Shown: positions 7,507-31,753, counted from the stretch's first letter. The stretch is 32,000 nucleotides of DNA from Candidatus Iainarchaeum sp. (GCA_043808785.1 JAZDEL010000010.1:1-32000); one strand, 5' to 3'. The notes: generated by a model not told the origin, from the letters alone. Numbers and translations are program-made.

Positions 7507-8628
7507 ATGGGGAAGCCGAAAAAGGGCAGGGTTCCGGTAACGGGGCACGCTGCAGCCGGGGGTGCAAGGGTTCTCGTAACCGGGGGTGCGGGCTTCATAG
7601 GCATGCACCTTGCAAAGGCGCTTGCACTGCGCGGCACCGCGGATGCGCTTGCAGGGCGCGGCATTGCAGACGGGGCAGCACTGTGCGGCGCAGTGCGCGG
7701 CTCGGCGCGCGATGAACTGCGCGGCTGTGAGGTCACAATTGCGGACAACCTCTCGCGCGGGAAGGCGGACGCCGAATTTAAAGAACTCTGCGCGCTGAAA
7801 AACGTTGATTTCATAAATGCCGACCTCTCCGTGCACGGCGGAACAAAAAAGCTCGGCAAACCCGACGCGTTTGATTTCGTTTACCACCTTGCCGCGATAA
7901 ACGGCACGCGCTTCTTTTACGAGAAGCCGGAGGAGGTGCTGCGCGTGAACATCTCGTCCGCGCTCAACATCCTCGAATGGCTCAAGTCACGGAAAGGGAA
8001 CGGCGCGAAAATAATTTTCTCATCCTCATCCGAGGCTTATGCAGGGGGCGTCTCACTCGGCGTATCGAAAATCCCCACTCCCGAAACCGCGCCGCTGGTT
8101 ATCGAGGACGTGAAGAACCCTAGGTGGAGCTACGGCGGGAGCAAGATTGCGGGCGAACTGCTGTTTGTGAATTATGCTCGCCGTTACGGTTTCCCGTTCT
8201 CCATAGTTCGCTACCACAACGTCTACGGCCCGCGCATGGGCAACGAGCACGTAATTCCCGAGTTCATAATGCGTGCGCAGCGCGGGGAAAACCCTTTCAA
8301 AATACAGGGCGGGGGGCAGACAAGGGCGTTCTGCTTTGTGGATGACGCGGTAAGGGCGACAATCATGGTTGCCGAGTCTGAAAAAACCGTCGGTGAAATA
8401 GTGCACATAGGCAACGATAAGGAAGAGATAAAAATCTCCGAACTTGCGGGCAGGGTATGCCGCATGCTCGGATACGAGCCGGAGCTGCAGGTTGTGCCCT
8501 CCCCCGAGGGCTCGGCAATGCGCCGCTGCCCCGACATAACAAAACTCCGCACGCTCACCGGCTTCGAGCCGAAAGTTTCGCTTGCAGAGGGGCTTAAAAA
8601 AACCGCAGAATGGTATTTGGGGAAATAA
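7507..8628 (+). CDS. NAD-dependent epimerase/dehydratase (extended SDR) with a 30-aa insertion in the Rossmann fold
   Basis: [14 protein letters not shown]; SSSSEAYAG; YGGSKIAGE (YxxxK); C-terminal TAEWYLGK. GTG 7498 overlaps the upstream stop (GTGA); ATG 7507 is the alternative. Confidence 0.85.
   Translation: MGKPKKGRVPVTGHAAAGGARVLVTGGAGFIGMHLAKALALRGTADALAGRGIADGAALCGAVRGSARDELRGCEVTIADNLSRGKADAEFKELCALKNVDFINADLSVHGGTKKLGKPDAFDFVYHLAAINGTRFFYEKPEEVLRVNISSALNILEWLKSRKGNGAKIIFSSSSEAYAGGVSLGVSKIPTPETAPLVIEDVKNPRWSYGGSKIAGELLFVNYARRYGFPFSIVRYHNVYGPRMGNEHVIPEFIMRAQRGENPFKIQGGGQTRAFCFVDDAVRATIMVAESEKTVGEIVHIGNDKEEIKISELAGRVCRMLGYEPELQVVPSPEGSAMRRCPDITKLRTLTGFEPKVSLAEGLKKTAEWYLGK
7627..7725 (+). 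repeat. 9-bp direct repeat CTGCGCGGC (7627-7635 and 7717-7725) bounding an in-frame 90-bp GC-rich insertion
   Basis: The two copies are exactly 90 nt apart. Removing one copy plus the spacer restores the canonical ...ALALRG-CEVTIADNLSRG Rossmann beta1-alphaA-beta2 spacing. Confidence 0.75.
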
Positions 8629-8647
8629 TTTGCAGGGTGTTCCGGTT

Positions 8648-9730
8648 ATGGCAAGCTCTATTGAAATAAAGCCGTCCAACGCGCTGCCTTTCGCGTACAA
8701 TTACCTGCGCTGGCATTTCAATTACTACGTTATGAACAGGCCATTCCCCCTGATTGCGCAGTTCTATACCTCGCACATGTGCAATTTCAGGTGCGCGTTC
8801 TGCAACTTCTGGCGCAACCCGGGGAAAAAATACATCCCCCTGCAGCGCTACAAATCCCTCATCGACGAGCTCTCGCTCATGGGCACCTGCTTCGTGAACT
8901 TCACGGGCGGCGAGCCGCTGATACTGCCCGATATAATCGAGCGCGTGCGCTATACGAAAACGAAAATACCCTATATGCACATGGTCTCGAACGGCTCCCT
9001 GCTCACGCCCGAAATTGCCCGCTCCCTCGGTGAGGCGAAGATTGACGCTGTTTCGATAAGCGTAAACGCTTACGGGGAAGCATACGACAAACTCACGGGT
9101 TTCAAAGGCGCGTTCAAGCGCGCAGTGCGGGCGGTCGAGAACCTTAAGGCTTACTCCCCCGCGGTTTCCGCATCAATAAATTCCGTGATAACTCCCCATA
9201 ACGCGGACGAACTTTACAAACTCCACGCCCTTTCAAAGGAACTTGGCATCGACCACAAGTTCCAGGCAGTGAGCATACATCCCGAATTTGCGGGGCAGAA
9301 ATCAAAGGCACGTTACGATTTCAAAACATCGGAACTCGAAAAGGTGCGCAAATTCTGCACGGAAATGGCGCGCGAGAAAAACGTCCTGAACAGCAAATAT
9401 TACCTCCTTCAGGTTGCGGATTATTTTGCGGGCAACGCACGCTCCGGCATTTTCGCCGAGCGCTGCATAACCCCGAACTATTTCGTCGAATTCTGGGAGG
9501 ACGGCTCGTTCAGCCCCTGCCTCACGGGCACAGGCTGGGCGCGCAATTTCAGCATCCGCGGCAAAAGCCTGCGCTCCGTCCTTGAAAGCCGGGAATACCG
9601 CGGCCAGTGCCTCGCGCTCGAGCAGTGCAAAACCTGCTCCACGAACCTTCAGGTCTGCATAATGGAGCCGCGAATTTTCTTCCCGCTCGGCAACTTTATT
9701 AAATATACCGTGCTACCAAACCTTAGGTGA
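8648..9730 (+). CDS. radical SAM protein with SPASM-like C-terminal Cys domain
   Basis: CX3CX2C in HMCNFRCAFCNFW; GGEPL motif. The C-terminus has CX12GX4C (CITPNY...EDGSFSPC) followed by CX5CX2CX6C (CLALEQCKTCSTNLQVC). ATG 8648 is preferred over the ORF-track start at 8582. Confidence 0.85.
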   Translation: MASSIEIKPSNALPFAYNYLRWHFNYYVMNRPFPLIAQFYTSHMCNFRCAFCNFWRNPGKKYIPLQRYKSLIDELSLMGTCFVNFTGGEPLILPDIIERVRYTKTKIPYMHMVSNGSLLTPEIARSLGEAKIDAVSISVNAYGEAYDKLTGFKGAFKRAVRAVENLKAYSPAVSASINSVITPHNADELYKLHALSKELGIDHKFQAVSIHPEFAGQKSKARYDFKTSELEKVRKFCTEMAREKNVLNSKYYLLQVADYFAGNARSGIFAERCITPNYFVEFWEDGSFSPCLTGTGWARNFSIRGKSLRSVLESREYRGQCLALEQCKTCSTNLQVCIMEPRIFFPLGNFIKYTVLPNLR

Positions 9731-9734
9731 ACCT

Positions 9735-10481
9735 TTGCCGCAGGCGAACAGAAAGCTTTCAGTAAGCATAATTATCCCCACGCTTAACGAGGAGAAAAAC
9801 CTCCCCCTGCTTGTAAAGAGGATTCCCCGCGGCGTTGCATCGGAAATCATTGTTGTAGACGGCCACTCCTCGGACGGAACCGTTGCCGTGGCAAAAAAAC
9901 TCGGCCTTCGCACGGTCATGCAGGAAGGGAAAGGCCTCGGCAACGCATACCGCACGGGCGCAAAGGCAGCAAAGGGGGAACTGATCGTAATTCTGGATGC
10001 CGACGGCTCCCACATGCCCGAAGACATCCCGCTCCTGCTTAAAAAAGCGAACGAGGGTTTTGACCTGGTTGTCGGGAGCAGGCTCAAGGGCGGAGTGCAG
10101 AGCAAGGACATGACTTTTTTCCGCCTTTACGCAAACTACCTCATTGCATTCACAATGCGCCTGCTTTTTTCAGTCCCCCTGACCGACCCGTGGATGGGTT
10201 TCAGGGCGATAAACAGGAAAAAATTCCTCGCCCTCGCCACCTCGGCGCCCGGGCAGGAAGTCGACCTTGAGATAGAGATAAAGGCGAAAAAGAACGGCAT
10301 GCGCATTGCGGAAGTCGCAACATTCGAGCCGCAGCGCATACACGGCAGCAGCAAGTTCAATGTCTTCTTCGACGGCCTGCGCGCGGGCGTCCTCTTCGCC
10401 CGCGAGTTAATCCTGCCGCACGAATCCCACAGGGAGTCGTGGCTGCTCGAGTTCATCCACAGGGTTCAGATGCGCTTTTAG
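9735..10481 (+). CDS. GT2 glycosyltransferase, DPM1/polyprenyl-phosphate sugar synthase-like (soluble form)
   Basis: SVSIIIPTLNEEKNL; VVDGHSSDGT; ILDADGSH (DxD). The start is TTG, with AGGTGA 4 nt upstream. Confidence 0.85.
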   Translation: MPQANRKLSVSIIIPTLNEEKNLPLLVKRIPRGVASEIIVVDGHSSDGTVAVAKKLGLRTVMQEGKGLGNAYRTGAKAAKGELIVILDADGSHMPEDIPLLLKKANEGFDLVVGSRLKGGVQSKDMTFFRLYANYLIAFTMRLLFSVPLTDPWMGFRAINRKKFLALATSAPGQEVDLEIEIKAKKNGMRIAEVATFEPQRIHGSSKFNVFFDGLRAGVLFARELILPHESHRESWLLEFIHRVQMRF

Positions 10482-10501
10482 CGCGGGATTGCGTGTTCGG
10501 C

Positions 10502-11254
10502 ATGGACAGGACCAATTCCCAGAAGGAGTTCTTCGACAGGCAGTCAGCGGAATACGAAATGCTGTATGGGGATGAAAGCGAACTCGAGCGCGAGATTGTA
10601 GAGAAGCGCCGCACGCTCGTTAAATCCTCGCAGCCCGCGGGAATCGTGCTCGACCTCGGCACAGGCACGGGCACGCACCTCGGGGAAATTTCGGGGAAGG
10701 CGGATGCGGTAATCGCGCTCGACATCTCCCCGCAGATGATTGCACTTGCAAGCCGCAGGGCCGAGAATGAAAAACTGCGGAACGTTTCCCTCGTGATTGC
10801 GGACGCGCAGAGCCTGCCCTTCAAGGAGGGCGCGTTCGATGCCGTCTACTGCATAAACGCTTTTTACCATGTGCCCGACAGGGGCAGGGCGCTTTCGGAA
10901 ATGCGCAGGGTTATGCGCAGGGGCGCATTTGCCATTCTGGAGTTCTACAGCATACTGAACCCTATGGTGTTTGCAAGGGTTGTTGTGAATTACATTTCCG
11001 CAATTTCCTCAAAGCGCGGCTTTGTGTATGCGGAATTCCCCCCCGCGTTCCGTGCAACCCTTTCGCGGAACGGCTTCACGCTCGAGGGCGGCTCTTTCTC
11101 GGCGCTCTCCTATGTCGAAACAAGCGAAGCAGTGAGGCAGTGGCTGCCCGAATTTGCGTTCCGCATTCTCTCGGCATACAGGCGCATCAGCGAGCGCCAC
11201 ACCTTCCTGAGGCCGCCGAAGATGCGCTGCGCGGCGAAAATAAGCAAGCGCTGA
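10502..11254 (+). CDS. class I SAM-dependent methyltransferase
   Basis: VLDLGTGTGTHL (motif I); ALDISPQMI; FDAVYCINAFYHV. ATG 10502 is preferred. Confidence 0.85.
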   Translation: MDRTNSQKEFFDRQSAEYEMLYGDESELEREIVEKRRTLVKSSQPAGIVLDLGTGTGTHLGEISGKADAVIALDISPQMIALASRRAENEKLRNVSLVIADAQSLPFKEGAFDAVYCINAFYHVPDRGRALSEMRRVMRRGAFAILEFYSILNPMVFARVVVNYISAISSKRGFVYAEFPPAFRATLSRNGFTLEGGSFSALSYVETSEAVRQWLPEFAFRILSAYRRISERHTFLRPPKMRCAAKISKR

Positions 11255-11312
11255 CCGTTAAGCGCCGACTGCGCCTAAAATGCGCCGCGCCGCAAAAATA
11301 ACCGTGCGCCGA
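11222..11312 (+). repeat. echo of the methyltransferase 3' end (11222-11254 versus 11280-11312)
   Basis: ATGCGCTGCGCGGCGAAAATAAGCAAGCGCTGA versus ATGCGCCGCGCCGCAAAAATAACCGTGCGCCGA: 26 of 33 identical by my count, offset 58 nt. GCGCCGACTG also recurs at 11262 and 11306. Confidence 0.6.
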
Positions 11313-11333
11313 CTGTACTTCCCGTGTGCCAGC

Positions 11334-12026
11334 CTAATCAGAAACCCTGTATTTCAGCAGCGCCCAGAGGGCGCAGAACCCGTCCTTCCACCAGCGTATT
11401 TTCTTTCCCTCCGCAAACCCCCGCGGCCTGAAATCTATCGGCACCTCGATTATTTTCTCCCCCTTCTTCAGGATTTTCGCGGTAATTTCCGGCTCGAAAT
11501 CGAATGCGTTGGACCTGAGCCGCATGCCCGCCAACACTTCCCGCCTGAACGCCTTGTAGCCTGTTTCCATGTCGGTAATCCTTGTGCCGTAAATAATTGC
11601 GGTTACCGCGCTCAGCAGCTGGTTCCCCATCCTGTGCAGCGCTATCTCCTTCCCCCTGACCTTGCCGAGGGCGCGCGAGCCGTAAACAACGTTCGCCCTT
11701 CCCTTCACTATCGGCTCAAGCAGTTTCGGGATGAATTTCGGGTCGTATTCCAGGTCCGCGTCCTGTATGATTATTATTTCCCCCTTCGAATTCGCAATGC
11801 CTGTCCTGATTGCCGCTCCCTTTCCGCGGTTCTTTTCGTGCTTCACCAGTTTTATGCCCTTTATTTTTCCGAGCGTTTCCGCGCTGTTGTCCGTGCTGCC
11901 GTCGTCCACAACAATGATTTCCTTTTCAAGCCCCAGCCCGGCAAGGGAGACGCGCTTTACCGCGCCTATGGTTTCGCCTATTGTGCCCCCTTCGTTGTAA
12001 CTCGGTATTATTATACTTGCCTTCAT
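11334..12026 (-). CDS. GT2 glycosyltransferase (dolichyl/polyprenyl-phosphate hexosyltransferase-like)
   Basis: MKASIIIPSYNEGGTI; VVDDGSTDNS; IIIQDADLEYDP. ATG 12026 is preferred; the 31 codons upstream in the ORF track are unlikely to be translated. Confidence 0.88.
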   Translation of the reverse strand: MKASIIIPSYNEGGTIGETIGAVKRVSLAGLGLEKEIIVVDDGSTDNSAETLGKIKGIKLVKHEKNRGKGAAIRTGIANSKGEIIIIQDADLEYDPKFIPKLLEPIVKGRANVVYGSRALGKVRGKEIALHRMGNQLLSAVTAIIYGTRITDMETGYKAFRREVLAGMRLRSNAFDFEPEITAKILKKGEKIIEVPIDFRPRGFAEGKKIRWWKDGFCALWALLKYRVSD

Positions 12027-12065
12027 CCCATCCCGCCGCAGTGCAGAATAAGCACACCTAACACT

Positions 12066-12143
12066 GCACCCATACGAATAAAAGTTTATTCGCGCCCGCG
12101 GCACGCCCGCATGCGGCACCCAAACGCATAAAAGTTTATTCGC
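12066..12143 (+). promoter_or_regulatory. duplicated 28-nt palindrome-containing AT-rich box (12066-12093 and 12116-12143)
   Basis: GCACCCATACGAATAAAAGTTTATTCGC versus GCACCCAAACGCATAAAAGTTTATTCGC, 26 of 28 identical. The core of copy 1, CGAATAAA-AG-TTTATTCG, is an inverted repeat. The AT box of copy 2 ends about 21 nt before ATG 12157. Confidence 0.5.
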
Positions 12144-12156
12144 ACAGTATTATCGC

Positions 12157-13713
12157 ATGGCAATCTCAGGCTACTTGAAGTGCCTTATCGCCCTGGCGGC
12201 TATTGCCGCGATTTTCTACTCCCTCGCGCTCGACGGTTTTATCGAGGGCGGGGATTCTACAAAATATGCGGTAGGGGCGCTCGCGCTTGCGCAGGGAAAA
12301 GGGTACGCGGATATAAGCGTTCCCGTTCCCGCACCGTTCACATATTATCCGCCCCTCACTTCCCTCCTCATGGCGCCTTTCGCGTTTTTCGGCTATAATG
12401 CGCTTGCCCTGAAAATTCCCGCCCTGCTTGCCTCGGCACTTTCCGTCATTGTTGCGGGCATGCTCTTCCGCAGGTTTTTCGGGCCGAGGCTTTCGCTCAT
12501 GCTTGCCGCGGTTTTTGCATTCTGCCTGCCGGTTTTATGGTATTCCCACAAGGCGCTGAGCGACGCCCCGTTCGTGCTGCTCTCGCTCCTTGCGGTTTTC
12601 TTCGCAACGGAACACGTGCGGCTTAACTCTAGGCTCTCCGCTGCGCTTGCAGTTGTTTTTACCGCGCTCTCGTGCCTCACGCGCGTTGCAGGCCTTGCGC
12701 TAATCCCCGCGCTCCCGATTTTCCTTTCCCTGCGCGGCAGGCCCAAGGCAGGCATTGCGTTTTCCCTTGCAGCCCTGCTCCTTATTTCCCCATGGCTCAT
12801 ATATCCCGCGTTCTTCCCCGAAAGCGGCGAGCCGAGTTACCTCGGCCTGATGTTTGCGAAGAACATAGAGGAATATTCCTCGGGCTATGCCTCCGGCACG
12901 CTTTCCGTGCAGGAGGTTGCGGCAAGGTCTGTTTCTTTCGCGTCATTCTATCTTTTCTCCTCGATACCCGAAACCGTTTTCCCGCCGCTCGGCGCCGCGC
13001 GCTGGGTTTTCGGCGCAAACCCTCTTGCCGCACTGCCTATTGCCGCAGCGGGGATTGCGGTGTTTGCGGTTTTTGCAGCGGGAATGCTCTCCGCGCGCAG
13101 GGAGTCTGGCTTCGCGCGCATTTACCTGCTGATTTACCTTGCAGCGCTGTTTATTTACCCTTACATAGACACAAGCGCGGTGAACAGGTTCCTGCTCCCT
13201 GTGCTGCCCCTGCTCCTGCTCTTCTTTGCCGACGGCCTGCTCCTTGCCTCGTCCGTCTTCAGGGAAAAAACGGGAATATCGCCGAAAACATCATCCGCCC
13301 TGGTTTTTGCCGTAATCGCGCTAATGCTTTTCGCGGGTTTTTCCTCGTGCGTTTATTACCTCGCAACCCAGCACGAACGCAATTTCGACGGCCCGTACAC
13401 AAACCTGCTGCTCGCTTCGGAGTGGGTCAGGGAGAACGCCCCGCAGGGCGCACTGCTCTGGTCGCCCATGCCGCAGAGGGTTTTCCTGCTCACAGGCAGG
13501 CACACAATAAAGGAACCCGCGGAAACCGCGGATGAACTCCTTTCCGCGTGGAAACGCAGCAGGGTTTCATACGCGCTCCTCGTTGATTACTCTGACAGCG
13601 GCAGGACCGCTGCCGAGGCGGCAATTGCGCAGGGCTTTGCCGAGGCCGTATACTCCGCACCTGACGGAAAGACAAAAGTGCTGAAGGTCATTAATGGCGT
13701 TCCTGCGCCGTAA
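12157..13713 (+). CDS. polytopic membrane protein, GT-C fold (GT39/PMT_2-like) glycosyltransferase candidate
   Basis: More than 10 hydrophobic segments. First loop reads GGDSTKYAVGALALAQGKGY. The C-terminal domain is soluble. Divergent from a GT2 gene. Confidence 0.68.
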   Translation: MAISGYLKCLIALAAIAAIFYSLALDGFIEGGDSTKYAVGALALAQGKGYADISVPVPAPFTYYPPLTSLLMAPFAFFGYNALALKIPALLASALSVIVAGMLFRRFFGPRLSLMLAAVFAFCLPVLWYSHKALSDAPFVLLSLLAVFFATEHVRLNSRLSAALAVVFTALSCLTRVAGLALIPALPIFLSLRGRPKAGIAFSLAALLLISPWLIYPAFFPESGEPSYLGLMFAKNIEEYSSGYASGTLSVQEVAARSVSFASFYLFSSIPETVFPPLGAARWVFGANPLAALPIAAAGIAVFAVFAAGMLSARRESGFARIYLLIYLAALFIYPYIDTSAVNRFLLPVLPLLLLFFADGLLLASSVFREKTGISPKTSSALVFAVIALMLFAGFSSCVYYLATQHERNFDGPYTNLLLASEWVRENAPQGALLWSPMPQRVFLLTGRHTIKEPAETADELLSAWKRSRVSYALLVDYSDSGRTAAEAAIAQGFAEAVYSAPDGKTKVLKVINGVPAP

Positions 13714-13737
13714 CCGCGCAGCGGCGCGCGCAGTTAT

Positions 13738-13811
13738 TCCATAAACAGCCAGTGCATTCCCCGCACCCGCAGGCTGCAGTTGCAGAGTTCACTCCATAAA
13801 CAGCCAGTGCA
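13738..13811 (-). repeat. echo of the B12-radical-SAM 3' end (13738-13756 versus 13793-13811)
   Basis: TCCATAAACAGCCAGTGCA is repeated 19 of 19 with a 55-nt offset. On the minus strand both copies read HWLFME followed by a stop: TGA in the gene, TAA in the echo. Confidence 0.8.
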
Positions 13812-15180
13812 GCCCCCTTTTCATCACGAAATAGAAATGCTGCGGAGTCCTTATTTCGCGCAGCATCCCGAGCAGTATGTGCGGCCGCATGTAGAATTTC
13901 GACAGCCCTTTCTGCCTCAGCTGCCTCAGCCTTTCCTTGCTTATTCCCTTCGGCGAATACGTTGCGCGGAAAAGGAAGCAGTTCTTCCAGTCAACATCCC
14001 CTATCTCGCCGCTTGCCCTGAGCGTGTCGTAAATCTCCGTGCCCGGGAAAGGCTGGAGGCAGGAGAAATTTATGCGCTTCAGTTTAAGCCCGAGCACGAA
14101 ATTTATTGTTTCCTCTATTTCCTCCTCGGTTTCAGTCGGGAAGCCGAGCATCACAAACCCGATAACCCCCAAGCCGACGGAATCAATCAGTTCTATCTTC
14201 TCCCTTGTCTGTGCGGGAGTGAGCCTTTTTTTGACAAGTTTAAGTATGCGCTCCGAACCCGATTCTATTCCCACGGAAACCGAGTAAAGCCCCGAGCGCT
14301 TCATCAGCAGGAGCAGTTCCCTGTCAAGCGTGTCCAAACGCATGCCGTTCGGGCAGCACCAGCTTATCCCGAGGTTCTCCGAAATCAGGCGGTTGCAGAA
14401 CTCCTCCACAAAGCGCCTGCTCATCGTGAAATTGTCGTCCTCTATATGTATTTCATTTATGCCGTACCTGTTGTGCAGGAGCTTTATTTCCTCTATCACG
14501 GAATCCACGCCGCGCACCCTTATCATTCTCCCCGAAACAACATGCCCGGCGCAGAACGTGCACTGGTAAGGGCAGCCGCGCGTAACAATTATCGGCGCAG
14601 TGGGGTACTGCCTGAAGAACGAGCCGTGCGGCGCCTGCGGGTATGTGCCTGGCCTGAGCAAGTCCCATGAGGGCGTGCCCAGTTCGTCGAGGTTCTTGAC
14701 AAATTTCCTTTCGTTCACAACAACGCGTTCCCCGTCCCTCCATATGAGGGATGGCACTTTTGCAAGTTTGGCTTTGCCTTTTTCGCCTTTCTCAAGCAAA
14801 TCAAGCAGCGCAGGGAACCCGATTTCGCTCTCCCCCGCAAATGCGAAATCTATTTCGGGAATTTCGCGCATTGTTTCTTCGGGCATCGCGGAAGGGTGCG
14901 GCCCGCCGACAACAACGGTTACGTGCGGGAACCTTTCCTTTATTCCCCTTGCGGTTTCCATTATGCCGCCGTAGTTCATTGTGAAGAACTGCATGCCGAC
15001 CACATCTATGCCCTGCGCGCCGATTTTCTCGAGCAGCTGCTCCGTGCCGATGTTTTCCTTTATGCAGTCAAGTATGCCGACGCTGTGCCTGCCCCTTATT
15101 GCCGTGGCTATGTAACCCAGCCCTATGGGGGGCATTGTTTCGTCCGCTGTGCTTTTGAGCTTTACAAGAAGCACTTTCAA
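13789..15180 (-). CDS. B12-binding-domain radical SAM protein (class B type)
   Basis: The N-terminal Rossmann-like domain (PPIGLGYIAT..., VVVGGPHPS) is followed by IIVTRGCPYQCTFCAG (CX3CX2C) and a TIM-barrel-like region. The start is TTG, with GAGGG 7 nt upstream. Confidence 0.88.
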   Translation of the reverse strand: MKVLLVKLKSTADETMPPIGLGYIATAIRGRHSVGILDCIKENIGTEQLLEKIGAQGIDVVGMQFFTMNYGGIMETARGIKERFPHVTVVVGGPHPSAMPEETMREIPEIDFAFAGESEIGFPALLDLLEKGEKGKAKLAKVPSLIWRDGERVVVNERKFVKNLDELGTPSWDLLRPGTYPQAPHGSFFRQYPTAPIIVTRGCPYQCTFCAGHVVSGRMIRVRGVDSVIEEIKLLHNRYGINEIHIEDDNFTMSRRFVEEFCNRLISENLGISWCCPNGMRLDTLDRELLLLMKRSGLYSVSVGIESGSERILKLVKKRLTPAQTREKIELIDSVGLGVIGFVMLGFPTETEEEIEETINFVLGLKLKRINFSCLQPFPGTEIYDTLRASGEIGDVDWKNCFLFRATYSPKGISKERLRQLRQKGLSKFYMRPHILLGMLREIRTPQHFYFVMKRGLHWLFME

Positions 15181-15218
15181 GCTATCGCCCTCATCCCACT
15201 TGCAAACTAATTCCCGCT

Positions 15219-15241
15219 GCGCTATCTATTTTAATTGTTTC
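15219..15241 (+). promoter_or_regulatory. 23-nt promoter-like box, copy 1 (GCGCTATCTATTTTAATTGTTTC)
   Basis: Identical to copy 3. Contains TATTTTAA (15227-15234). ATG 15261 follows the box by 19 nt. Confidence 0.55.
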
Positions 15242-15267
15242 TGCGCGCTTGCGATCGCGCATGCCGC

Positions 15268-15340
15268 GTGCTGCCTCGCTATTTTGCCTGCGGGCAAAAT
15301 GCGCGCATTCGGGCTTCTGCCCGAATAGCGTCGGCAGCAC
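15268..15340 (+). ncRNA. candidate structured element: closing 8-bp stem plus two twin 11-bp hairpins (Y shape)
   Basis: GTGCTGCC (15268-15275) pairs with GGCAGCAC (15333-15340). The hairpins are at 15277-15303 (loop TGCG) and 15304-15330 (loop TTCT), each with one bulged base. In total 60 of 73 nt are paired. Confidence 0.4.
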
Positions 15341-15364
15341 TAGCCTACCCGCGCTTTCTGCCTT

Positions 15365-15387
15365 GCGCCACCTATTTTAATTGTTTC
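15365..15387 (+). promoter_or_regulatory. 23-nt promoter-like box, copy 2 (GCGCCACCTATTTTAATTGTTTC)
   Basis: 21 of 23 identical to copies 1 and 3. Immediately followed by TGGTACAAAA. Confidence 0.5.
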
Positions 15388-15397
15388 TGGTACAAAA
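15388..15397 (+). promoter_or_regulatory. TGGTACAAAA motif, copy b
   Basis: Directly abuts promoter-like box copy 2. Confidence 0.35.
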
Positions 15398-15422
15398 CCC
15401 GCAACCTTATGCAGTGCCTGCC

Positions 15423-15445
15423 GCGCTATCTATTTTAATTGTTTC
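15423..15445 (+). promoter_or_regulatory. 23-nt promoter-like box, copy 3: likely promoter of the dehydrogenase operon
   Basis: TATTTTAA (15431-15438) ends 24 nt before ATG 15463, and no SD lies between. Confidence 0.6.
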
Positions 15446-15462
15446 CATGGAGCATTCTTTGC

Positions 15463-19194: not shown

Positions 19195-20154
19195 ATGCGT
19201 GTCCTGGTTACCGGTGCTGCGGGGCTTTACGGCGTCCACACGGTTGCGGAGCTTGTCTCAAGCGCGAAAACCGGGAAAATTTTCGCGCTCGACGACATGA
19301 GCCGCGGCTTTCTCGGCAGGGAGCCGTTCATACTGCCCGAGGGCTTTGCGGAAAAGGTCCAGATAATGAAGCGCGATTTCCGCACGCTTAAGGCGAAAGA
19401 AATCGATGCAATGAAGCTTGACACCATTATGCATTTTGCCGCGCACGTTTCCATAGACGAAAGCATGGTTAACCCGCGGAAATATTTCGACAACAACGAG
19501 CTCGGCACGTTCAACCTTTGCAGGGAGCTGCTTGCAAGCAAAACAAAGCCGGCGCTTATTTACGCATCATCCCCCGAGGTTTACGGCAACCCTCTGCGCA
19601 CGCCGATGGACGAATTGCACCCTCTTTCCCCGAGGAGCGTTTACGCAGTCACAAAACTCGCTGCTGAAAAGCACTGCCTCTCCATGTTCGAATGGCACAA
19701 TTATCCCGTGAACGTTATAAGGAACTTCAACACATTCGGCGAGAACCAGAACCTCTGGGGCTATTCCGCGGTAATTCCCGCATTCATAAGCCGCGCGCTG
19801 AAAGGGCAGGCACTGCAGGTTTCCGGCAGCGGGGAGCAGACGCGTGATTTCCTGTATGTGAAGGACGCGGCACGCGCTTACAGGATGCTCGCTGAAAAAG
19901 GCGGCTCTATAAAAGGCGAAATATTCAACATAGGCACGGGGAAGCAGACAAGCGTAAAGGCGCTTGCCGAAAAAATAATAAAAATCACGGGTTCTGGTTC
20001 GGAGATTGTTTCCGCGGAGGCGAGGAAGGGCGACCTCAAGGCGCTGGAGGCGGACGTTTCAAAAATTTCCTCTTCCCTCGGATGGAAGCCGAAGTACACG
20101 CTTGAACAGGGCCTGAAGGAAACCGCGGAATGGTACGGAAAATTTGTGAAGTGA
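19195..20154 (+). CDS. NAD-dependent epimerase/dehydratase family protein (extended SDR)
   Basis: VLVTGAAGLYG; HFAAHVSIDES; ASSPEVYG; YAVTKLAAE (YxxxK); GSGEQTRDFLYV; C-terminal TAEWYGKFVK. Confidence 0.85.
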   Translation: MRVLVTGAAGLYGVHTVAELVSSAKTGKIFALDDMSRGFLGREPFILPEGFAEKVQIMKRDFRTLKAKEIDAMKLDTIMHFAAHVSIDESMVNPRKYFDNNELGTFNLCRELLASKTKPALIYASSPEVYGNPLRTPMDELHPLSPRSVYAVTKLAAEKHCLSMFEWHNYPVNVIRNFNTFGENQNLWGYSAVIPAFISRALKGQALQVSGSGEQTRDFLYVKDAARAYRMLAEKGGSIKGEIFNIGTGKQTSVKALAEKIIKITGSGSEIVSAEARKGDLKALEADVSKISSSLGWKPKYTLEQGLKETAEWYGKFVK

Positions 20155-20200
20155 ATGCATGGCATGCGGGGCGGAATGGAAATGGAAATTTGTGAAGTAA
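20125..20200 (+). repeat. echo of the SDR 3' end (20125-20154 versus 20171-20200)
   Basis: GCGGAATGGTACGGAAAATTTGTGAAGTGA versus GCGGAATGGAAATGGAAATTTGTGAAGTAA: 25 of 30 identical, both 10 codons ending in a stop (AEWYGKFVK* and AEWKWKFVK*). The offset is 46 nt, so the copies are out of frame with each other. Confidence 0.75.
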
Positions 20201-20215
20201 TTTTTGGTGTGCATT

Positions 20216-21172
20216 ATGGCTAATGTCCTTGTAACAGGCGGCGCGGGGTTCATAGGGCGCTGGGTTGTGAAAAAATTGCTCGGCGAAAAGCACAGGGTGT
20301 GGGTTCTTGACAACCTCTCCAACGGCAGCGCGGAAAACCTTGCGGAGTTCAAGGGCAATAAAAATTTCGCGGGGCTTGTTCAGGGAAATGTGGAGGATGC
20401 CGCGCTTGTTTCAGGGCTCTTCTCCAAAAACAAATTCGACCTCGTTATCCACCTCGCTGCGCAGATAAACGTTCAGGAAAGCATCGGCAATCCGCGGAAA
20501 AGTTTCGATTCCAACATCCTCGGCACATTTGTCCTGCTCGAGGAGATGAGGAAGCGCAGGTCCTTGCCGAAAATGGCGCTCATAGGCACATGCATGGTTT
20601 ACGACCTCGCCTCAGCAGGCGGGGCAATAAGCGAATCGCATCCCTTGAAGCCGTTGAGCCCTTACGCGGCATCAAAGATCGCCGCAGAGCAGCTTGTCGA
20701 GGCCTACGGAAATTCCTACTCCCTCCCCTACACAATCCTGCGCCCGTTCAATACCTACGGCCCTTTCCAGAAAAGCAATATGGAAGGGGGCGTTGTAAGC
20801 ATCTTCCTGCAGAACGCCCTCAACAAAGAGCCGCTGAAGGTTTTCGGCTCGGGCAAGCAGACGCGCGACCTTCTCTATGTGGAGGACTGCACTGAGTTCA
20901 TAGTGCGCGCGGCATTTGAAAAGCGCGCGGAGGGTAAGGTGATAAATGCGGGCTCTGGGCAGGACATAAGCGTAAATGAACTCGCGAAAATCATCGCCCG
21001 CGGAAAATCCAAAGTCCTGCACGTGAAACACCACCACCCTCAGGCGGAGATAATGAAGCTGCAGTGCGATTATTCCCTTGCGCGGAAACTCCTCGGATGG
21101 AAGCCGAGGCACACGCTTGAGGAAGGCATAAATGAAACTCGCGAGTGGCTCTCGCGCCAGGGGGGAAATTGA
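20216..21172 (+). CDS. NAD-dependent epimerase/dehydratase family protein (extended SDR)
   Basis: [14 protein letters not shown]; VLDNLSNGS; HLAAQINVQES; YAASKIAAE; FGSGKQTRDLLYV. ATG 20216 has GGTG 6 nt upstream. Confidence 0.85.
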   Translation: MANVLVTGGAGFIGRWVVKKLLGEKHRVWVLDNLSNGSAENLAEFKGNKNFAGLVQGNVEDAALVSGLFSKNKFDLVIHLAAQINVQESIGNPRKSFDSNILGTFVLLEEMRKRRSLPKMALIGTCMVYDLASAGGAISESHPLKPLSPYAASKIAAEQLVEAYGNSYSLPYTILRPFNTYGPFQKSNMEGGVVSIFLQNALNKEPLKVFGSGKQTRDLLYVEDCTEFIVRAAFEKRAEGKVINAGSGQDISVNELAKIIARGKSKVLHVKHHHPQAEIMKLQCDYSLARKLLGWKPRHTLEEGINETREWLSRQGGN

Positions 21173-21173
21173 T

Positions 21174-22535
21174 ATGGCTTCGGGCAAGGGTGTGCTGTCA
21201 GGCAAGGGGGGAACTGGCGAGGCTTCCGCAAAGGAGCAGCAGATTTTCAGGCTTGTGGAAGAACTGATGAAGGAAAATGAAGAATCGAAAAAATTTATCC
21301 CTGGGCAGTCAAAGGTCCACTACTCGGGCCCGTTGTTCGGCCACCGCGAGGTTAACGCAATACTCTCCAGCCTCTTCGACGGCTGGCTTGCGGAGGGGAA
21401 GAATACGGTCGAGTTCGAGAGGCGCTTTTCGCAGTTCGTCGGGGCAAAGGATGCCGTGGTGACAAACTCAGGCTCTTCCGCCCTGCTGCTTTCCTTTGCA
21501 GCGCTTATGAACCGCGGGGTCGAGAACCCGCTGAAGCAGGGCGATGAAGTAATAACCTCCGCGCTCACATTCCCCACAACCCTGAATGCAGCGCTGCTTA
21601 ACGGCCTTTCACTCGCTTTTGTCGACGTTGACAGGCAGAGCTACAATATGGGCCTTGCGCAGCTCGAGCGCACGGTTACAAAGAAAACCCGCGCAATCCT
21701 CGCAATGCATCACCTCGGAAACCCTATAGAGATGGATGCGCTTATGGAGATTGCGGAAAGGCATGACCTTGCGGTTGTCGAGGACTGCTGCGATGCGCAC
21801 GGCTCTTCATACAAGGGAAAAAAGCTCGGCTCATGGGGCGAGTTAGGGGCGTTTTCATTTTACGGCGCGCACGCAATGACAATGGGTGAAGGGGGAATAA
21901 TCACGACAAGCAACGAGGCGCTTGTGCCGCTTCTGCTTTCGCTGAAAACCTGCGGCAGGGCCTGCGTTTGCAGGGTATGCACGATTGCAATGAACTCCGA
22001 AACCCGCTGCCCGATAAGGTTCAAGGCGGGGATGAAGGGCTTCGAGGAATACGACAAGCGCACGCTTTACCCGAACGTAGGCTATAAGCTCAAGACTTTG
22101 GACCTGCAGGCCGCCATGGGCCTCGTGCAATTGGAGCGCCTGCCGCAGTTCGTAAAGTCGCGCAAGAGGAATTTCGATTTCATTGTTTCCTCTCTGCGCC
22201 CGTTTGAAAAATTCCTGCAGCTTCCCGAGGAAACAAAAAATTCCGAAGCCTGCTGGTTTGCGGTGCCCCTTACGATAAAGGAGGGCGCACCCTTCTCGCG
22301 CAGGGATATTGTTGACTTCCTCGAGAAAAAGAACATAGAAACAAGGCCGCTGCTCGGCGGCAACATACTTAAGCAGCCCGCTTACAATGGGATGAAGTTC
22401 CGTTCAACGCCCCTGCCAAACACCGATTATTTCCACGACAATTCATTCTATATCGGCTGCCACCCCGGATTGACGCATGAGATGCTGGATTACATTGCCT
22501 GCAGTTTCGGGGAATTTTTCAAGAGGCCGAAGTAA
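21174..22535 (+). CDS. RfbH/DdhC (E1)-like DegT-family enzyme, paralog 2
   Basis: Collinear with paralog 1: SLFDGWLAEGK; TNSGSSALL; GDEVITSALTFPTT; VEDCCDAHGS; His in FSFYGAHAMTMGEGG; CGRACVCRVCTIAMNSETRC (C-x3-C-x-C-x2-C-x9-C); PEETKNSEACWFAVPLT. ATG 21174 lies directly after the upstream stop. Confidence 0.87.
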   Translation: MASGKGVLSGKGGTGEASAKEQQIFRLVEELMKENEESKKFIPGQSKVHYSGPLFGHREVNAILSSLFDGWLAEGKNTVEFERRFSQFVGAKDAVVTNSGSSALLLSFAALMNRGVENPLKQGDEVITSALTFPTTLNAALLNGLSLAFVDVDRQSYNMGLAQLERTVTKKTRAILAMHHLGNPIEMDALMEIAERHDLAVVEDCCDAHGSSYKGKKLGSWGELGAFSFYGAHAMTMGEGGIITTSNEALVPLLLSLKTCGRACVCRVCTIAMNSETRCPIRFKAGMKGFEEYDKRTLYPNVGYKLKTLDLQAAMGLVQLERLPQFVKSRKRNFDFIVSSLRPFEKFLQLPEETKNSEACWFAVPLTIKEGAPFSRRDIVDFLEKKNIETRPLLGGNILKQPAYNGMKFRSTPLPNTDYFHDNSFYIGCHPGLTHEMLDYIACSFGEFFKRPK

Positions 22536-22567
22536 CTTGGCATGCGTGTTCAGGGGGTGGATGTAAC

Positions 22568-23500
22568 TTGCCGCGCGAAAAAGTTTTCATAACAGGCGCC
22601 TCCGGCCTCCTCGGCGCGGCGTGCTGCCTCGAACTGCGGAACAGGTTTGATGTTACTGGCAGTTACCATTCTCACGGGGTAGGGATGGATGGCGTCGAAA
22701 CAGTGATGCTTGACTTCGGCAATTCCGCGGATGTAATTAAAAAAATAAAATCCGCAAAGCCGCAATGGGTTATCCACACAGCGGCAATGACTAATGTCGA
22801 CCTCTGCGAAACCGAGCGCGCGCGTGCTTACGAGGCGAACGTAACCGGGGCAAAAAACATCGCGCTCGCGGCAAAGGAATGCGGCGCAATGCTCATCCAC
22901 ATGTCCACAGATTACGTTTTCGACGGAAAAAAGGGGAATTATTCCGAAACAGACGCGCTAGGGCCCGTTAGCTATTACTGCGAGACAAAGGTGCTGGGGG
23001 AGCAAGAGGTTGCAAATGCGTATCCCGATGCCGCAATAGTGCGGGCAACAATCTTCGGCTGGAATATTGTCGGCGGGCAGTTCAACATAGGCTCGCGCAT
23101 TGTAAGCGAACTGCGCGCGGGAAGGAAACCCGCGCTCTTCACCGACCAGTGCAACTCGACAATACTCGTGAACGACCTTGCGGAACTATTTTCGGAGATG
23201 CACGCGAAGCGCCTTTCCGGCGTGTACCATGCCGGCACGCAGGGCAAAACAAGCAAGTATGCTTTGGGCCTTGAGATATGCAGGGCGTTCGGCTTCGATA
23301 AGTCGATGCTGCGGGAGGCAAGGCTTTCCGAGTTCGAGAAGAGGGGCGTGCTCAAGGCGAAAAGGCCGCGCGACACATCGCTATCGTCAAAAAAGCTCGA
23401 GAAAGCCCTCGGAAGGAAGATGCCCGAAATACGCGGCTGCGTGGAAAGGTTCAAGAATCTGGGGGGCAATAATTATCTGGGCAACTTTGCCCTGAAATGA
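22568..23500 (+). CDS. RmlD-like NDP-4-dehydro-6-deoxyhexose reductase (dTDP-4-dehydrorhamnose reductase family)
   Basis: KVFITGASGLLG; HTAAMTNVDLCE; MSTDYVFDGKKGNYSE; YYCETK (YxxxK). The start is TTG, with GGTGGA 6 nt upstream. Confidence 0.8.
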   Translation: MPREKVFITGASGLLGAACCLELRNRFDVTGSYHSHGVGMDGVETVMLDFGNSADVIKKIKSAKPQWVIHTAAMTNVDLCETERARAYEANVTGAKNIALAAKECGAMLIHMSTDYVFDGKKGNYSETDALGPVSYYCETKVLGEQEVANAYPDAAIVRATIFGWNIVGGQFNIGSRIVSELRAGRKPALFTDQCNSTILVNDLAELFSEMHAKRLSGVYHAGTQGKTSKYALGLEICRAFGFDKSMLREARLSEFEKRGVLKAKRPRDTSLSSKKLEKALGRKMPEIRGCVERFKNLGGNNYLGNFALK

Positions 23501-23536
23501 GGCCGCGGGAATGAGAAATGAAGTGAGGATGCAGGC

Positions 23537-24337
23537 ATGAAAAAGGTAGTTGTTTTTTTCGATATCGAAGCAAACCTTGTGAGCCAGGGCGGGGACAACA
23601 AGGGCTACATAGAGGCGTGCCTGAAAACCCTGCAGAAGCACGGTGTGCATGCAACGCTAAATGTTTGCGGCAGTGTTGTGAAACAATATCCCGAAATTTT
23701 CAGGAAAGCCGCGCTCGCGGGGCACGAGATTGCCTCCCACGGCTACTCGCACGAGAACTTTCTGGAACTGCGCGCGGAGGAACTGAACCTTGCGCTAGAA
23801 AAAGCGGAGCGAGAAATAGAAAATGCGTGCGGAGCAAGGCCTCTGGGCGTACGCAGCCCGTGGCTTTACATGAACCGCGGAGTTTATTCCGTTTTCAGTT
23901 CACGCGGCTATCTTTGGGCAAGCAACCGCAGGATGCGCATGCCCGAAATAGTTAAGCACCCGTCGCTCCAGCCGGATGCAAGCCTCGCATACCGCGCCAA
24001 CGCGTTCCTCATGCGCACATACCTTTCGTTTCAGGGGCTCTGGTTCCCCAAGGCGCCATATGTGCTTGACGGTGTGCTTGAGATTCCGCTCCTCTCCTCC
24101 ATGGACGGGGAACTCCTCGGCCTTGTTGACCCCAACCAGGAAAGCAGCGAACAGGCTGTTGAATACGCCATTGCCTCGCTTAAGAAGCAGTTCCTGCGTT
24201 CCAAGGGGCACTTTAATCTTACATTCCACGACTGGGTAATAGGTTCCGCAAACCGCACAAAAGTTCTTGACGAACTTCTGCGCTTCATGAAATCGCAGGG
24301 CGCGGAATTTTTTACCGCTTCAGAACTCCTGAAATGA
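23537..24337 (+). CDS. polysaccharide deacetylase (CE4/NodB-fold) family protein
   Basis: FFDIEAN (motif 1 variant); HEIASHGYSHENF (H-x-x-x-H metal motif); VRSPW (RxPY-like); TFHDW. Confidence 0.72.
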   Translation: MKKVVVFFDIEANLVSQGGDNKGYIEACLKTLQKHGVHATLNVCGSVVKQYPEIFRKAALAGHEIASHGYSHENFLELRAEELNLALEKAEREIENACGARPLGVRSPWLYMNRGVYSVFSSRGYLWASNRRMRMPEIVKHPSLQPDASLAYRANAFLMRTYLSFQGLWFPKAPYVLDGVLEIPLLSSMDGELLGLVDPNQESSEQAVEYAIASLKKQFLRSKGHFNLTFHDWVIGSANRTKVLDELLRFMKSQGAEFFTASELLK

Positions 24338-25487: not shown

Positions 25488-25556
25488 CGAATCAGCCTGC
25501 CGCTCGCGTTATGCACCCGCATTCCTGTGCCGGGCATGCATTTTTCCCGCAGAGCC

Positions 25557-26531: not shown

Positions 26532-26559
26532 GATGTTCCACCTTTATGCAAGTTTCAAA

Positions 26560-26569
26560 TTTGTACCAA
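26560..26569 (-). promoter_or_regulatory. TTGGTACAAA motif, copy d (minus orientation)
   Basis: The plus strand reads TTTGTACCAA in the AT-rich divergent GT2/GT-C spacer. On the GT2 strand it lies between an AT box (CTAATAAAT) and the SD/TTG start. Confidence 0.35.
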
Positions 26570-26679
26570 TAGCATTTATTAGAAATTTGTGGGGTTATAT
26601 CCTATATTATAATTATCGTTTCCCCTTGTTTAAAATAGTAATGGTACGGTTCTGGAACCCGTTTAGGGCAGGTGCAAAA

Positions 26680-30332: not shown

Positions 30333-30348
30333 TTTCCTTTTCCTGAAA

Positions 30349-31716
30349 TCACAGGTAACCGAGGCCCTTAAGCCTTTCCTTCACTTTGCCCTCAACAGGG
30401 TTCTCCACGTCAGCCCTTGCGGCTTCCGCAGCGCCCGCGTTTTCATAGCTCTCCACATATGCCGTGCCGCGTTCCGAAGAAAAGCCTTTCCCCAGCGCCT
30501 CTTCTGCGGCCTCGCCGTCCATGTCGCGCGCCTGCGGCATGCCCATCAATGCAAGCATTGTCGGCATTATATCCCGCACGGAAATTTTTCCTATCTCCCC
30601 CGCCTTCGCAAACCCCGCGCCCGAAAAAACCGAAATCCCCGGCGGCCCGAACATGTGCCCGCCGCTGTATTCCCCCTCCGCCTTGCTGCCCAGCGCCGCC
30701 TCTACGCCGTGGTCCGAGACTATTATGAAATTCGCATCGTCCCCCGCTGCGCGCATAACCCTGCCCAGGCATTCGTCCGCAAATTCATAGTAGTTCAAAA
30801 TCGCCTCCCCGAATTCCGAAATTTCCTCCCTTGTGACAACGCTGAAAAGTTCGGGGTGCATGTACTTCCAGCAGAAGTGCTGCATGCCGTCTATCCCGTA
30901 AAAATTAACCGCAAACACATCGGGCTTCTCCCTCTGCAGGAGTTCCTCCGCAACCGCGCAGTTGAGCTTGTCCCTCACATAGCCGAACTTCAGTATGTCA
31001 TACGGCTTCTTGTTTTCGTTCAGGCTCTTCACCGAGCGGAAAATTTCCATGCCCTTGCCCCCCGTGTTTATGAACCTTTTAATCTCGGCATCGCTTATCC
31101 GCATTGCGCTTTCCATTTTCTCCCGCACGAATGAGAATAGTTCGGCGGGGTATGCCGCCCTTTCCGCAAGTTCCCCCCCTCCCTTTCCCGCGTGTATCTC
31201 GCGCATCATCAGGTCTATGTTGTCCGTGACCATGAACCCGTTTACCTCCTCCGCGGGCCAGCTTATCATCCAGTCAACAACCCCCACCTTATATCCCGCG
31301 TCGCCGAATATGTTCCAGAACGCCTTCGCCCTCCTTGATGTAGAGTTTATTGTCGTGCCCTCCAGTATGCGCAGCGCGACAAGCGCCTTTACGCAAACCT
31401 GCAGCAGGTTCCTTGCGTACTTGTCCATCCTCATGTGGTAGCCGGGCCTCTTAAAATGCCCGAGCCTTTTCCCGAGCAGGGGAATGCGCCAGGTCATGAA
31501 GTCCTCTATTCCGTGCTTCTCCGCAACCTTTCCAGTCGCAATCGTGGTCCATATCACGGGGCTCCATGCAGGGGTTATTGTTTCCAGTTCCGCATGGCAG
31601 CCGTTGTCCATGAGTTTTTTAAGGTTCCTCAATCTTCCCTGCGCAACCATCGGATTTATGACGCCCCAGCTCGCGCCGTCCAGCCCTATAATTACGAGTT
31701 TAGTTTTTTGCCGCAT
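30349..31716 (-). CDS. alkaline-phosphatase-superfamily protein (type I phosphodiesterase/nucleotide pyrophosphatase-like)
   Basis: KLVIIGLDGASW; ITPAWSPVIWTTIATGKVAEKHGI (NPP-like nucleophile segment with Ser); IIVSDHG. ATG 31716 has GAGGGTG upstream; ATG 31737 (a TAATG overlap with the upstream stop) is the alternative. Confidence 0.78.
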   Translation of the reverse strand: MRQKTKLVIIGLDGASWGVINPMVAQGRLRNLKKLMDNGCHAELETITPAWSPVIWTTIATGKVAEKHGIEDFMTWRIPLLGKRLGHFKRPGYHMRMDKYARNLLQVCVKALVALRILEGTTINSTSRRAKAFWNIFGDAGYKVGVVDWMISWPAEEVNGFMVTDNIDLMMREIHAGKGGGELAERAAYPAELFSFVREKMESAMRISDAEIKRFINTGGKGMEIFRSVKSLNENKKPYDILKFGYVRDKLNCAVAEELLQREKPDVFAVNFYGIDGMQHFCWKYMHPELFSVVTREEISEFGEAILNYYEFADECLGRVMRAAGDDANFIIVSDHGVEAALGSKAEGEYSGGHMFGPPGISVFSGAGFAKAGEIGKISVRDIMPTMLALMGMPQARDMDGEAAEEALGKGFSSERGTAYVESYENAGAAEAARADVENPVEGKVKERLKGLGYL

Positions 31717-31753
31717 ATTCCCCGCACCCTCGCGCATTAGTTTTTTGCCGCAT
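31701..31753 (-). repeat. perfect 16-nt echo linking the GT4 3' end to the phosphodiesterase 5' start
   Basis: The plus strand reads TAGTTTTTTGCCGCAT at 31701-31716 and at 31738-31753, which is ATGCGGCAAAAAACTA on the minus strand. The offset is 37 nt. One copy encodes AAKN-stop of the GT4 gene; the other supplies ATG-R-Q-K-T of the next gene. Confidence 0.85.

Follow-up and report, generated by a model that had tools for sequence, protein, structure and literature searches.

Short, partly nested direct repeats at gene junctions in a glycan-biosynthesis island of Candidatus Iainarchaeum sp.

We analysed a 32-kb stretch of Candidatus Iainarchaeum sp. (JAZDEL010000010.1:1-32000; 54.8% G+C), hereafter the window, which is our entire sample of this genome, and found that the boundaries between its glycan-biosynthesis genes carry imperfect local direct repeats. 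The repeated blocks are 20-42 nt long (mostly 28-34 nt), their copies lie 26-58 nt apart and once 146 nt, the spacers between them measure 0-114 nt, and the copies of a pair differ by 7-28% (identity 72-93%). In a window-wide repeat search each repeat family was confined to its own junction. The reading that we favour, at a probability of about 0.5, is that these are nested short duplications made in situ by slippage or template switching, which would have been kept only where open reading frames (ORFs) stayed intact and would partly have been co-opted. We infer both the molecular mechanism and the direction of the events from the sequence.

Local direct repeats are in excess and lie at gene junctions

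Local direct repeats at offsets of 15-150 nt were collected with an ungapped diagonal scan and compared with Markov-3 and block shuffles (local composition kept). The window holds eight repeats scoring at least 13, against 0.25 in the Markov-3 and 0.075 in the block shuffles, and six scoring at least 15, against 0.05 and 0, respectively. As a further control we used 1.84 Mb of sequence in 160 loci of other genomes, the majority of them homologous loci for glycan synthesis. Repeats scoring at least 15 reach 1.9 per 10 kb in the window and 0.19 per 10 kb in these loci, which places the window first of 161; the Poisson expectation derived from the control loci would be 0.6 such repeats instead of six. 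Gapped self-alignment was then performed on 200-nt segments, 27 centred on gene junctions and 108 tiled through gene interiors. Six of the 27 junction segments scored 37-46 (z = 9-15), while no interior segment scored above 28 (Fisher P ~4e-5). A chance origin is ruled out by the shuffles, the control loci and this comparison of junctions with interiors.

A first-pass annotation had described the repeats as a recurring feature of gene boundaries and had suggested comparing boundaries with interiors and with shuffled controls, and within the window that comparison bears the description out. Six of its seven strong pairs are direct repeats at the junctions where it had placed them; the seventh (7624/7678) sits inside the epimerase gene 7498-8628 and corresponds to two periods of an in-frame 27-nt tandem repeat (Tandem Repeats Finder, TRF: 7612-7663). 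Among its weaker pairs, ATAGCCCCC (19074/19097, junction z = 1.3) and TTATGCNCCC (25509/25557, junction z = 1.0) are at chance level. The pairs GTAACTTG and GAAATGA(G/A)G are not significant alone but form part of longer diverged repeats, at 22518/22549 (29 nt, 72%) and at 23493-23544 (period 26, 76%), respectively. One pair, 21146/21192 (offset 46), had been missed.

The source is a metagenomic contig (233,549 bp), and an assembler might have manufactured repeats of this kind from strain variants. We regard this as very improbable: the copies are nested and 7-28% divergent, every ORF is preserved with one copy read in frame as part of a gene, the joining of two alleles through a unique spacer requires that spacer to exist, and an analogous case is present in an independent assembly (locus L002, described below).

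Table 1 Repeat copies and associated elements in the window (SD, Shine-Dalgarno sequence; promoter assignments are predictions).
Feature	Position	Strand	Description
In-frame 27-nt tandem repeat	7612-7700	+	~3 units; epimerase gene 7498-8628 (TRF 7612-7663)
Methyltransferase 3' end, in-gene copy	11214-11255	+	last 13 codons + TGA stop (11252-11254), gene 10439-11254
Methyltransferase 3' end, extra copy	11272-11313	+	33/42 identical, stop lost, in 79-nt convergent gap
Promoter-like copy 1	12066-12093	+	near-palindromic CGAATAAAAGTTTATTCG; centre ~57 nt upstream of GT2 start (12026, -)
Promoter-like copy 2	12116-12143	+	26/28 identical; core ~24-28 nt before ATG 12157, PMT_2-like gene
Radical-SAM 3' end, extra copy	13732-13762	-	MHWLFME-TAA, 55 nt downstream of true end, convergent gap
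Radical-SAM 3' end, in-gene copy	13786-13817	-	last 8 codons + TGA (13789-13791), LHWLFME, gene 13789-15180
Promoter-like copy 1	15213-15243	+	CTATTTTAATTG; centre ~51 nt upstream of radical-SAM TTG 15180 (-)
Imperfect palindromic three-way-junction element	15250-15354	.	between promoter-like copies 1 and 2
Promoter-like copy 2	15358-15387	+	
Promoter-like copy 3	15418-15445	+	core 15431-15440, ~27 nt before ATG 15463, UDP-glucose dehydrogenase
Epimerase 3' end, in-gene copy	20125-20156	+	last 9 codons AEWYGKFVK + TGA (20152-20154), gene 19195-20154
Epimerase 3' end, extra copy	20171-20201	+	AEWKWKFVK-TAA, upstream of SD + ATG (20216), next epimerase gene
Second epimerase end, in-gene copy	21146-21167	+	WLSRQGG, gene 20216-21172; copied at 21192-21213
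DegT N-terminal extension	21174-21213	+	gene 21174-22535; spacer + second copy (VLSGKGG); absent from relatives
Diverged near-tandem repeat	22518-22577	+	22518-22546/22549-22577, period 31, 72%, z = 1.6
Diverged tandem repeat	23493-23544	+	period 26, 76%, z = 2.6
Tandem 37-nt duplication	31700-31781	-	SD + ATGCGGCAAAAAACTAA, partial third unit

Repeats at gene ends and gene starts

The coordinates of all copies are collected in Table 1. At the methyltransferase 3' end (self-alignment z = 12.3), the in-gene copy is followed by a nested 14-nt duplicate, AAGCGCTGACCGTT/AAGCGCCGACTG, and the whole of 11214-11313 has the layout B-C-C'-B'-C''. The occurrence of GCGCCGACTG at 11262 and 11306 makes the spacer itself a local duplicate (P <= 0.04). 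The radical-SAM pair spans 31-32 nt with one 1-nt gap, and because the in-gene end matches the C-termini of homologues (...RWLF..), the downstream copy is the extra one. At all four differences of this pair (at 13738) a G or C of the gene stands against an A of the extra copy, which would fit neutral, AT-biased decay of a dead copy.

The first epimerase pair has a block of 31-32 nt and a mini-palindromic spacer, GCATGGCATGC (GCATG-G-CATGC at 20157-20167, P = 0.007). At the second epimerase end the duplicate is part of the next gene: DegT carries 13 extra residues, MASGKGVLSGKGGT, where a relative has a plain 4-nt ATGA overlap between the epimerase and DegT genes. This extension contains an 18-nt in-frame internal repeat (SGKG twice), with GGCAAGGG at 21183 and 21201 (P <= 0.04), and the translation of the second copy resembles the epimerase C-terminus of the relative (FLSGKK-stop). 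Over all window pairs 10 of 30 copy differences fall at third codon positions; there is no enrichment, and coding constraint on the extra copies was rejected on this count.

Two functional proposals for the extra gene ends were likewise rejected. A backup terminus for +1-frameshifted ribosomes, an idea that arose from offsets of 1 modulo 3, does not agree with the TGA already present in the +1 frame at 20147-20149 of the 20125 repeat. Independent "mini-genes" are not general: an in-frame ATG stands before the extra copies at 13734-13757 and 20159-20200, but the L002 copy lacks one. Seven of the eight gene-terminus offsets (58, 55, 46, 46, 31, 37 and, in L002, 121) equal 1 modulo 3, the exception being the period-26 repeat at 23493; this regularity was noticed post hoc and in small numbers.

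A gene start is involved in the tandem duplication on the minus strand at 31700, in which 31700-31733 and 31737-31770 match over 34 nt of the 37-nt period with 79% identity. The upstream copy holds the last codons and TAA stop (31737-31739) of the GT1 gene (...EKNAAKN-stop), and the downstream copy supplies the phosphodiesterase start at 31716 (MRQKTKLVIIGLDG), in agreement with the public gene call. Deletion of one 37-nt unit would restore a 17-nt stop/start overlap; the resolution of overlapping genes that had been suggested earlier is directly visible at this locus. A further repeat with a 19-nt period (31748/31767) lies within it. The two diverged repeats also lie where one gene ends and the next begins: copy 1 at 22518 contains the DegT stop (22533-22535) and copy 2 the SD and TTG start (22568) of an RmlD-like gene, and the repeat at 23493 spans the stop of gene 22568-23500 and the start of a deacetylase gene (23537). 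Their membership in the pattern is suggestive only, given their scores.

Inside genes, the repeat at 7612 is the sole strong one in the window and the top-scoring interior segment, and it forms the counterpart within a gene to the repeats at junctions. It encodes ALALRGTAD/ALAGRGIAD/... directly after the Rossmann NAD-binding GxxGxxG and is an insertion relative to the Pfam Epimerase profile.

Two side observations concern these junctions. Short ORFs of 9-19 codons bridge genes at 20164-20223, 23511-23540 and 31753-31700 (-), beginning in the upstream copy or the spacer and overlapping the next start codon by 8, 4 and 17 nt, respectively; they might relay translational coupling or be a by-product of the duplications. 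In addition, an exact 13-mer, GGGTGCGGGGAAT, occurs only at 13756-13768 and 31717-31729 (-), both times directly before an ATG at a repeat-bearing junction, and with up to two mismatches it matches seven sites where 1.0 would be expected. A Shine-Dalgarno context common to both places or a patch that was copied may account for it. A binding site for a shared regulator was rejected: the repeat families are junction-unique, and their only common string is GGGTGCGGGGAAT, which resembles a Shine-Dalgarno context.

Promoter-like repeats in the divergent gaps

Genes with non-coding DNA upstream carry an AT-rich TATA-like element, as expected from sequence for archaeal TATA-type promoters. TATA-like cores are centred ~24-29 nt upstream of the ATGs at 12157, 15463 and 19195, close to the 26-27 nt that separate the TATA element of an archaeal TFB-recognition element (BRE)/TATA promoter from the transcription start, which suggests that these genes are leaderless; at other genes the TATA-like element is farther away, ~50-60 nt before the start, with a G-rich Shine-Dalgarno sequence after it. 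The copies of the 12066 and 15213 families would be promoters of these two types. For both divergent gene pairs, the near copy places its TATA core at about -27 of the plus-strand ATG of the predicted leaderless gene, the minus-strand gene has an SD-bearing leader, and the far copy is situated 51-57 nt before its start. The promoter-like copies are the best conserved of all repeats (88-93% identity). The earlier claim that most pairs include a stop or start codon is true of the pairs at gene termini and fails for these two families, which contain neither; the third copy that it had noted for the 15365/15423 pair was confirmed, with copies at 15213, 15358 and 15418.

The element between promoter-like copies 1 and 2 of the 15213 family has an outer stem, GUGCUGCC/GGCAGCAC, and two perfect 8-bp hairpins. 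Its minimum free energy is -58.9 kcal/mol on the plus and -60.6 kcal/mol on the minus strand (z ~-3.6 and -3.7). It has no Rfam or tRNA match, as is true of the window as a whole, and it could be a small RNA or an element acting at the DNA level.

These arrangements bear on the proposal that selection, not mutation, explains the pattern, the copies being kept as paired promoters, as separate ribosome-binding and start regions, or as coupling upstream ORFs. Both promoter families do put a TATA-like core at about -27 (leaderless) and at about -51 to -57 (leadered), the promoter copies are the most conserved, and mini-ORFs link the upstream stop and the downstream start at 31753-31700, 23511-23540 and 20164-20223. 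However, no function is evident for the extra copies that lie between convergent genes (11272, 13732), the extra copy in L002 has no in-frame start codon, and selection accounts for retention, not origin. As a full explanation we therefore find it rather improbable.

Junction spacing and gene order relative to other archaea

When the repeat offset is subtracted from each affected gap, the gaps collapse from 79 to 21, 130 to 80, 75 to 20, 282 to 78, 61 to 15, 32 to 1, 36 to 10 and 20 to -17 nt, values that match the spacings at repeat-free junctions of the window and in relatives. Both divergent gaps shrink to ~80 nt, the sum of 27 nt (TATA to leaderless ATG) and 51-57 nt, which is the room that a single shared TATA element would need. 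By our count, repeat copies make up about three quarters of the non-coding DNA at the nine affected junctions.

The convergent adjacency of the radical-SAM and GT2 genes (gap -4 to 13 nt) is kept in the relatives L001, L161, L171 and L173; the contigs L161-L169 belong to the population of one relative, are 99.5-100% identical and are uninformative on insertions and deletions. In the window (11334-15180) this pair is broken, with GT2 inverted and a gene for a PMT_2-like membrane protein in between, and the break coincides with three repeat-bearing junctions. One relative offers a comparable repeat. In L002, a metagenome-assembled genome (MAG) of Candidatus Iainarchaeum, gene 3499-4569 has its last 11 codons and its stop repeated 121 nt downstream (3379-3535), with CDNCIRTGFID-TAA at the gene end and CDNCIKTGFID-TAG in the extra copy. 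Of the six differences between the copies, all but one are synonymous, conservative or stop-to-stop. The spacer holds a palindrome with 14-nt arms, CTTTCTTTTCTTTT-TA-AAAGAAAAGAAAG; the next gene starts 16 nt past the extra copy, which has no in-frame start codon.

Rearranged junctions raise the possibility that the extra gene ends are recombination scars, that is, the last codons of former alleles or paralogues left after replacement, inversion or deletion during cassette shuffling, as had been suggested earlier. The repeat-bearing junctions are indeed rearranged relative to Iainarchaeota relatives, and the island is mosaic, with a phosphodiesterase gene that has only bacterial homologues at ~35% identity. 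Moreover, similarity stops at the stop codon, as expected of coding ends that evolved in different contexts, three of four 3'-end copies retain the stop, and the L002 differences are nearly all of the mild kinds just listed (5/6). Against this, every remnant would need to have been cut down to 28-42 nt, synonymous changes are not enriched over all window pairs (10/30), and the promoter repeats, the tandem 37-nt start duplication and the nested duplicates are left unexplained. In homology-facilitated illegitimate recombination, furthermore, the anchor is replaced and not duplicated. We consider it doubtful that the repeats arose in this way.

Origin of the repeats

According to our favoured reading, error-prone replication or repair, by strand slippage or microhomology-mediated template switching and often in several nested rounds, would have generated short duplications in an archaeal surface-glycan island with rearranged junctions, and duplication would partly be tied to rearrangement. 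A duplication over a stop codon would not damage the gene and would place a non-functional copy of its last 8-13 codons behind it, and one over a start or promoter would leave a working copy beside the gene. Some copies would then have been co-opted: each gene of two divergent pairs would have gained its own TATA element, an overlapping stop/start pair would have been separated, and one copy would have turned into an N-terminal extension.

The repeats would be confined to junctions because only there do insertions that are not a multiple of three spare every ORF. None of the junction offsets (58, 50, 55, 58, 146, 46, 46, 37, 31 and 26) is a multiple of three, and the repeats inside genes are in frame, at 27 nt (7612) and 18 nt (DegT extension). 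The first-pass statement that no described mechanism was known to predict boundary specificity was too strong, as purifying selection on randomly placed short duplications predicts a boundary bias. Its template-switching proposal agrees with the nested patchworks at 11214-11313, 21146-21213 and 31700-31781, although the characteristic tract of about 50 nt that it assumed is not constant, with a block of 20-42 nt and a spacer of 0-114 nt; each of its three proposed explanations retains some support. Full or nearly full tandem duplications are found at four loci: 31700 (37 nt), 23493 (26 nt), 22518 (29 of 31 nt) and 7612 (27 nt).

Several observations weigh against an origin by slippage or template switching. 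At 11214, 12066, 13732, 15358, 20125 and 21146 the spacer is unlike either flank. The spacers of these six non-tandem pairs measure 14-30 nt and once 114 nt; two are explained by nested duplication, and for four no template was detected on either strand within 150 nt. The four 3'-end repeats of the spacer type, one of them in L002, lose similarity 0-3 nt past the stop codon, and a random-breakpoint model does not predict similarity that ends there. Short tandem repeats overall (TRF) occur at 5.3 per 10 kb in the window and 5.1 in the controls, so the sequence is not globally slippage-prone. A scan of 87 kb from Iainarchaeota-like relatives, which had also been proposed earlier, returned one comparable case (L002). 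Finally, the evidence comes from 32 kb of one genome, and no relative is close enough to polarise the events.

Three narrower models for the spacers were rejected. Simple tandem duplication with uniform decay cannot give a block of ~90% identity beside a spacer of random identity in the six pairs, and an inverted templated origin was unsupported in the template search. The motif GCATGC/ATGCRG is not spacer-specific. The GCATGC palindrome (SphI site) occurs at five sites in junction spacers (12109, 15259, 20162, 22540 and 25534), and it is over-represented throughout the window, with 32 occurrences against 16.6 +/- 3.7 expected from dinucleotide shuffles.

The unrelated spacers would also fit insertion with a long target-site duplication. 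After a staggered break of ~26-42 nt and its fill-in, a short insert would separate the two copies; it might be filler, a very small palindromic element or what an excised element left behind, and the block would be constant and the spacer variable. The block (20-42 nt) is in fact tighter than the offset range (26-146 nt), the spacers are unrelated to their flanks, three of eight are palindromic (20157-20167, 15250-15354 and L002), and an insertion into the last 30 nt of a gene regenerates its end, which predicts stop-containing repeats. Yet only those three spacers are palindromic, their length varies from 0 to 114 nt, no sequence is common to them and none recurs in the window, and Pfam searches revealed no transposase, integrase or cas gene there. 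We know of no transposase or integrase that makes duplications this long, the upper limit being ~15 bp, as for casposons. We judge this insertion model unlikely.

A further, improbable possibility is that this archaeal lineage has a dedicated DNA transaction, one that acts where transcription units end and produces target duplications of ~30 nt around a short insert, often a palindrome. It would act just past stop codons and at TATA elements, and it could be a staggered-cut integrase or nuclease or a particular route of break repair. If real, it would be a built-in way of inserting spacers, splitting operons and duplicating promoters without gene damage.

Relation to known systems

The closest conceptual match to the pattern is the work on microhomology-mediated tandem duplications (MTDs), which are short, in fission yeast (PMC8639346). 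MTDs and slippage duplications account for much of short insertion variation; like the repeats described here, they involve tens of nucleotides in place and are tolerated outside ORFs or in frame, and four of our loci are plain tandem units of 26-37 nt. In contrast to MTDs, most pairs here have an unrelated spacer and are old (72-93% identity) instead of subclonal, and their density is ~10-fold that of comparable loci with no rise in ordinary short tandem repeats. Archaeal polymerases PolB and PolD have been reported to slip in vitro at hairpins flanked by direct repeats (PMC4134008).

Scars of alternative end joining, microhomology-mediated break-induced replication (MMBIR) or fork stalling and template switching (FoSTeS) combine a copy of nearby sequence with filler at a repaired or rearranged junction. 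The nested complexity and the link to rearranged gene order resemble such templated insertions, but the spacers here have no detectable template, and to our knowledge scars of this type are undocumented for archaea of this group.

Target-site duplication and neo-CRISPR-like integration share the repeat-spacer-repeat layout and the ~30-nt block, and differ in that the window has no recurring element, no cas or transposase genes and irregular spacing. A CRISPR array was excluded because one family has at most three copies (146 and 58 nt apart) and the others two, and cas genes are absent from the window. Diversity-generating retroelements (DGRs) are common in DPANN archaea (PMC8144416), and their template and variable repeats (TR/VR) are reminiscent of a gene 3' end directly repeated in nearby non-coding DNA. 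A DGR was nevertheless rejected: at ~30 nt the blocks fall short of the 100 nt or more of a DGR, the window has no reverse transcriptase, and the mismatches are mixed instead of adenine-specific. Transposon or integron membership was also rejected, with no matching genes or layouts in the window, and as to a mobile element or miniature inverted-repeat transposable element (MITE), three of eight spacers are palindromic and no spacer recurs within the 32 kb. Our literature searches turned up no account of 30-nt duplications specific to gene junctions in archaea. The feature is most probably a known type of mutation that is locally dense here, and whose products selection has shaped and in part co-opted.

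Gene content of the locus

The window is a densely packed glycan-biosynthesis island, as judged by Pfam annotation of 27 gene products. These include three UDP-glucose/GDP-mannose dehydrogenases, several NAD-dependent epimerases/dehydratases, three DegT-type aminotransferases, transferases of the GT1, GT2 and PMT_2 types, two radical-SAM proteins, methyltransferases, a polysaccharide deacetylase, a flippase and an AlkP-family phosphodiesterase. Transposase, integrase, cas and reverse transcriptase domains were absent from the 27 products.

The nearest relatives of the B12-binding radical-SAM protein come from Candidatus Iainarchaeum/Diapherotrites MAGs (61-66% identity), and the window's own protein is the sole member of its cluster. 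Scans of genomes and metagenomes yielded no relative above 52-66% amino-acid identity, and at this distance orthologous intergenic DNA is not comparable. The host is presumably an uncultured DPANN archaeon without close sequenced relatives.

Apart from this, the phosphodiesterase gene (30349-31716, -) has no homologue above ~35% identity, and its few named matches are bacterial (Eisenbacteria, Acidobacteria), which suggests that the island gained it horizontally.

Significance

If the repeats are indeed short duplications filtered by selection, they would show how a gene-dense archaeon can come to have intergenic DNA, separate promoters and gene ends that do not overlap, with duplications as the raw material and selection as the filter. 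They would also give a mutational signature that can be read in a DPANN lineage that is uncultured and unstudied as to replication and repair. Should the combination of a ~30-nt block, an end at the stop codon and unrelated spacers recur genome-wide, it would point to an undescribed mechanism of repair or insertion.

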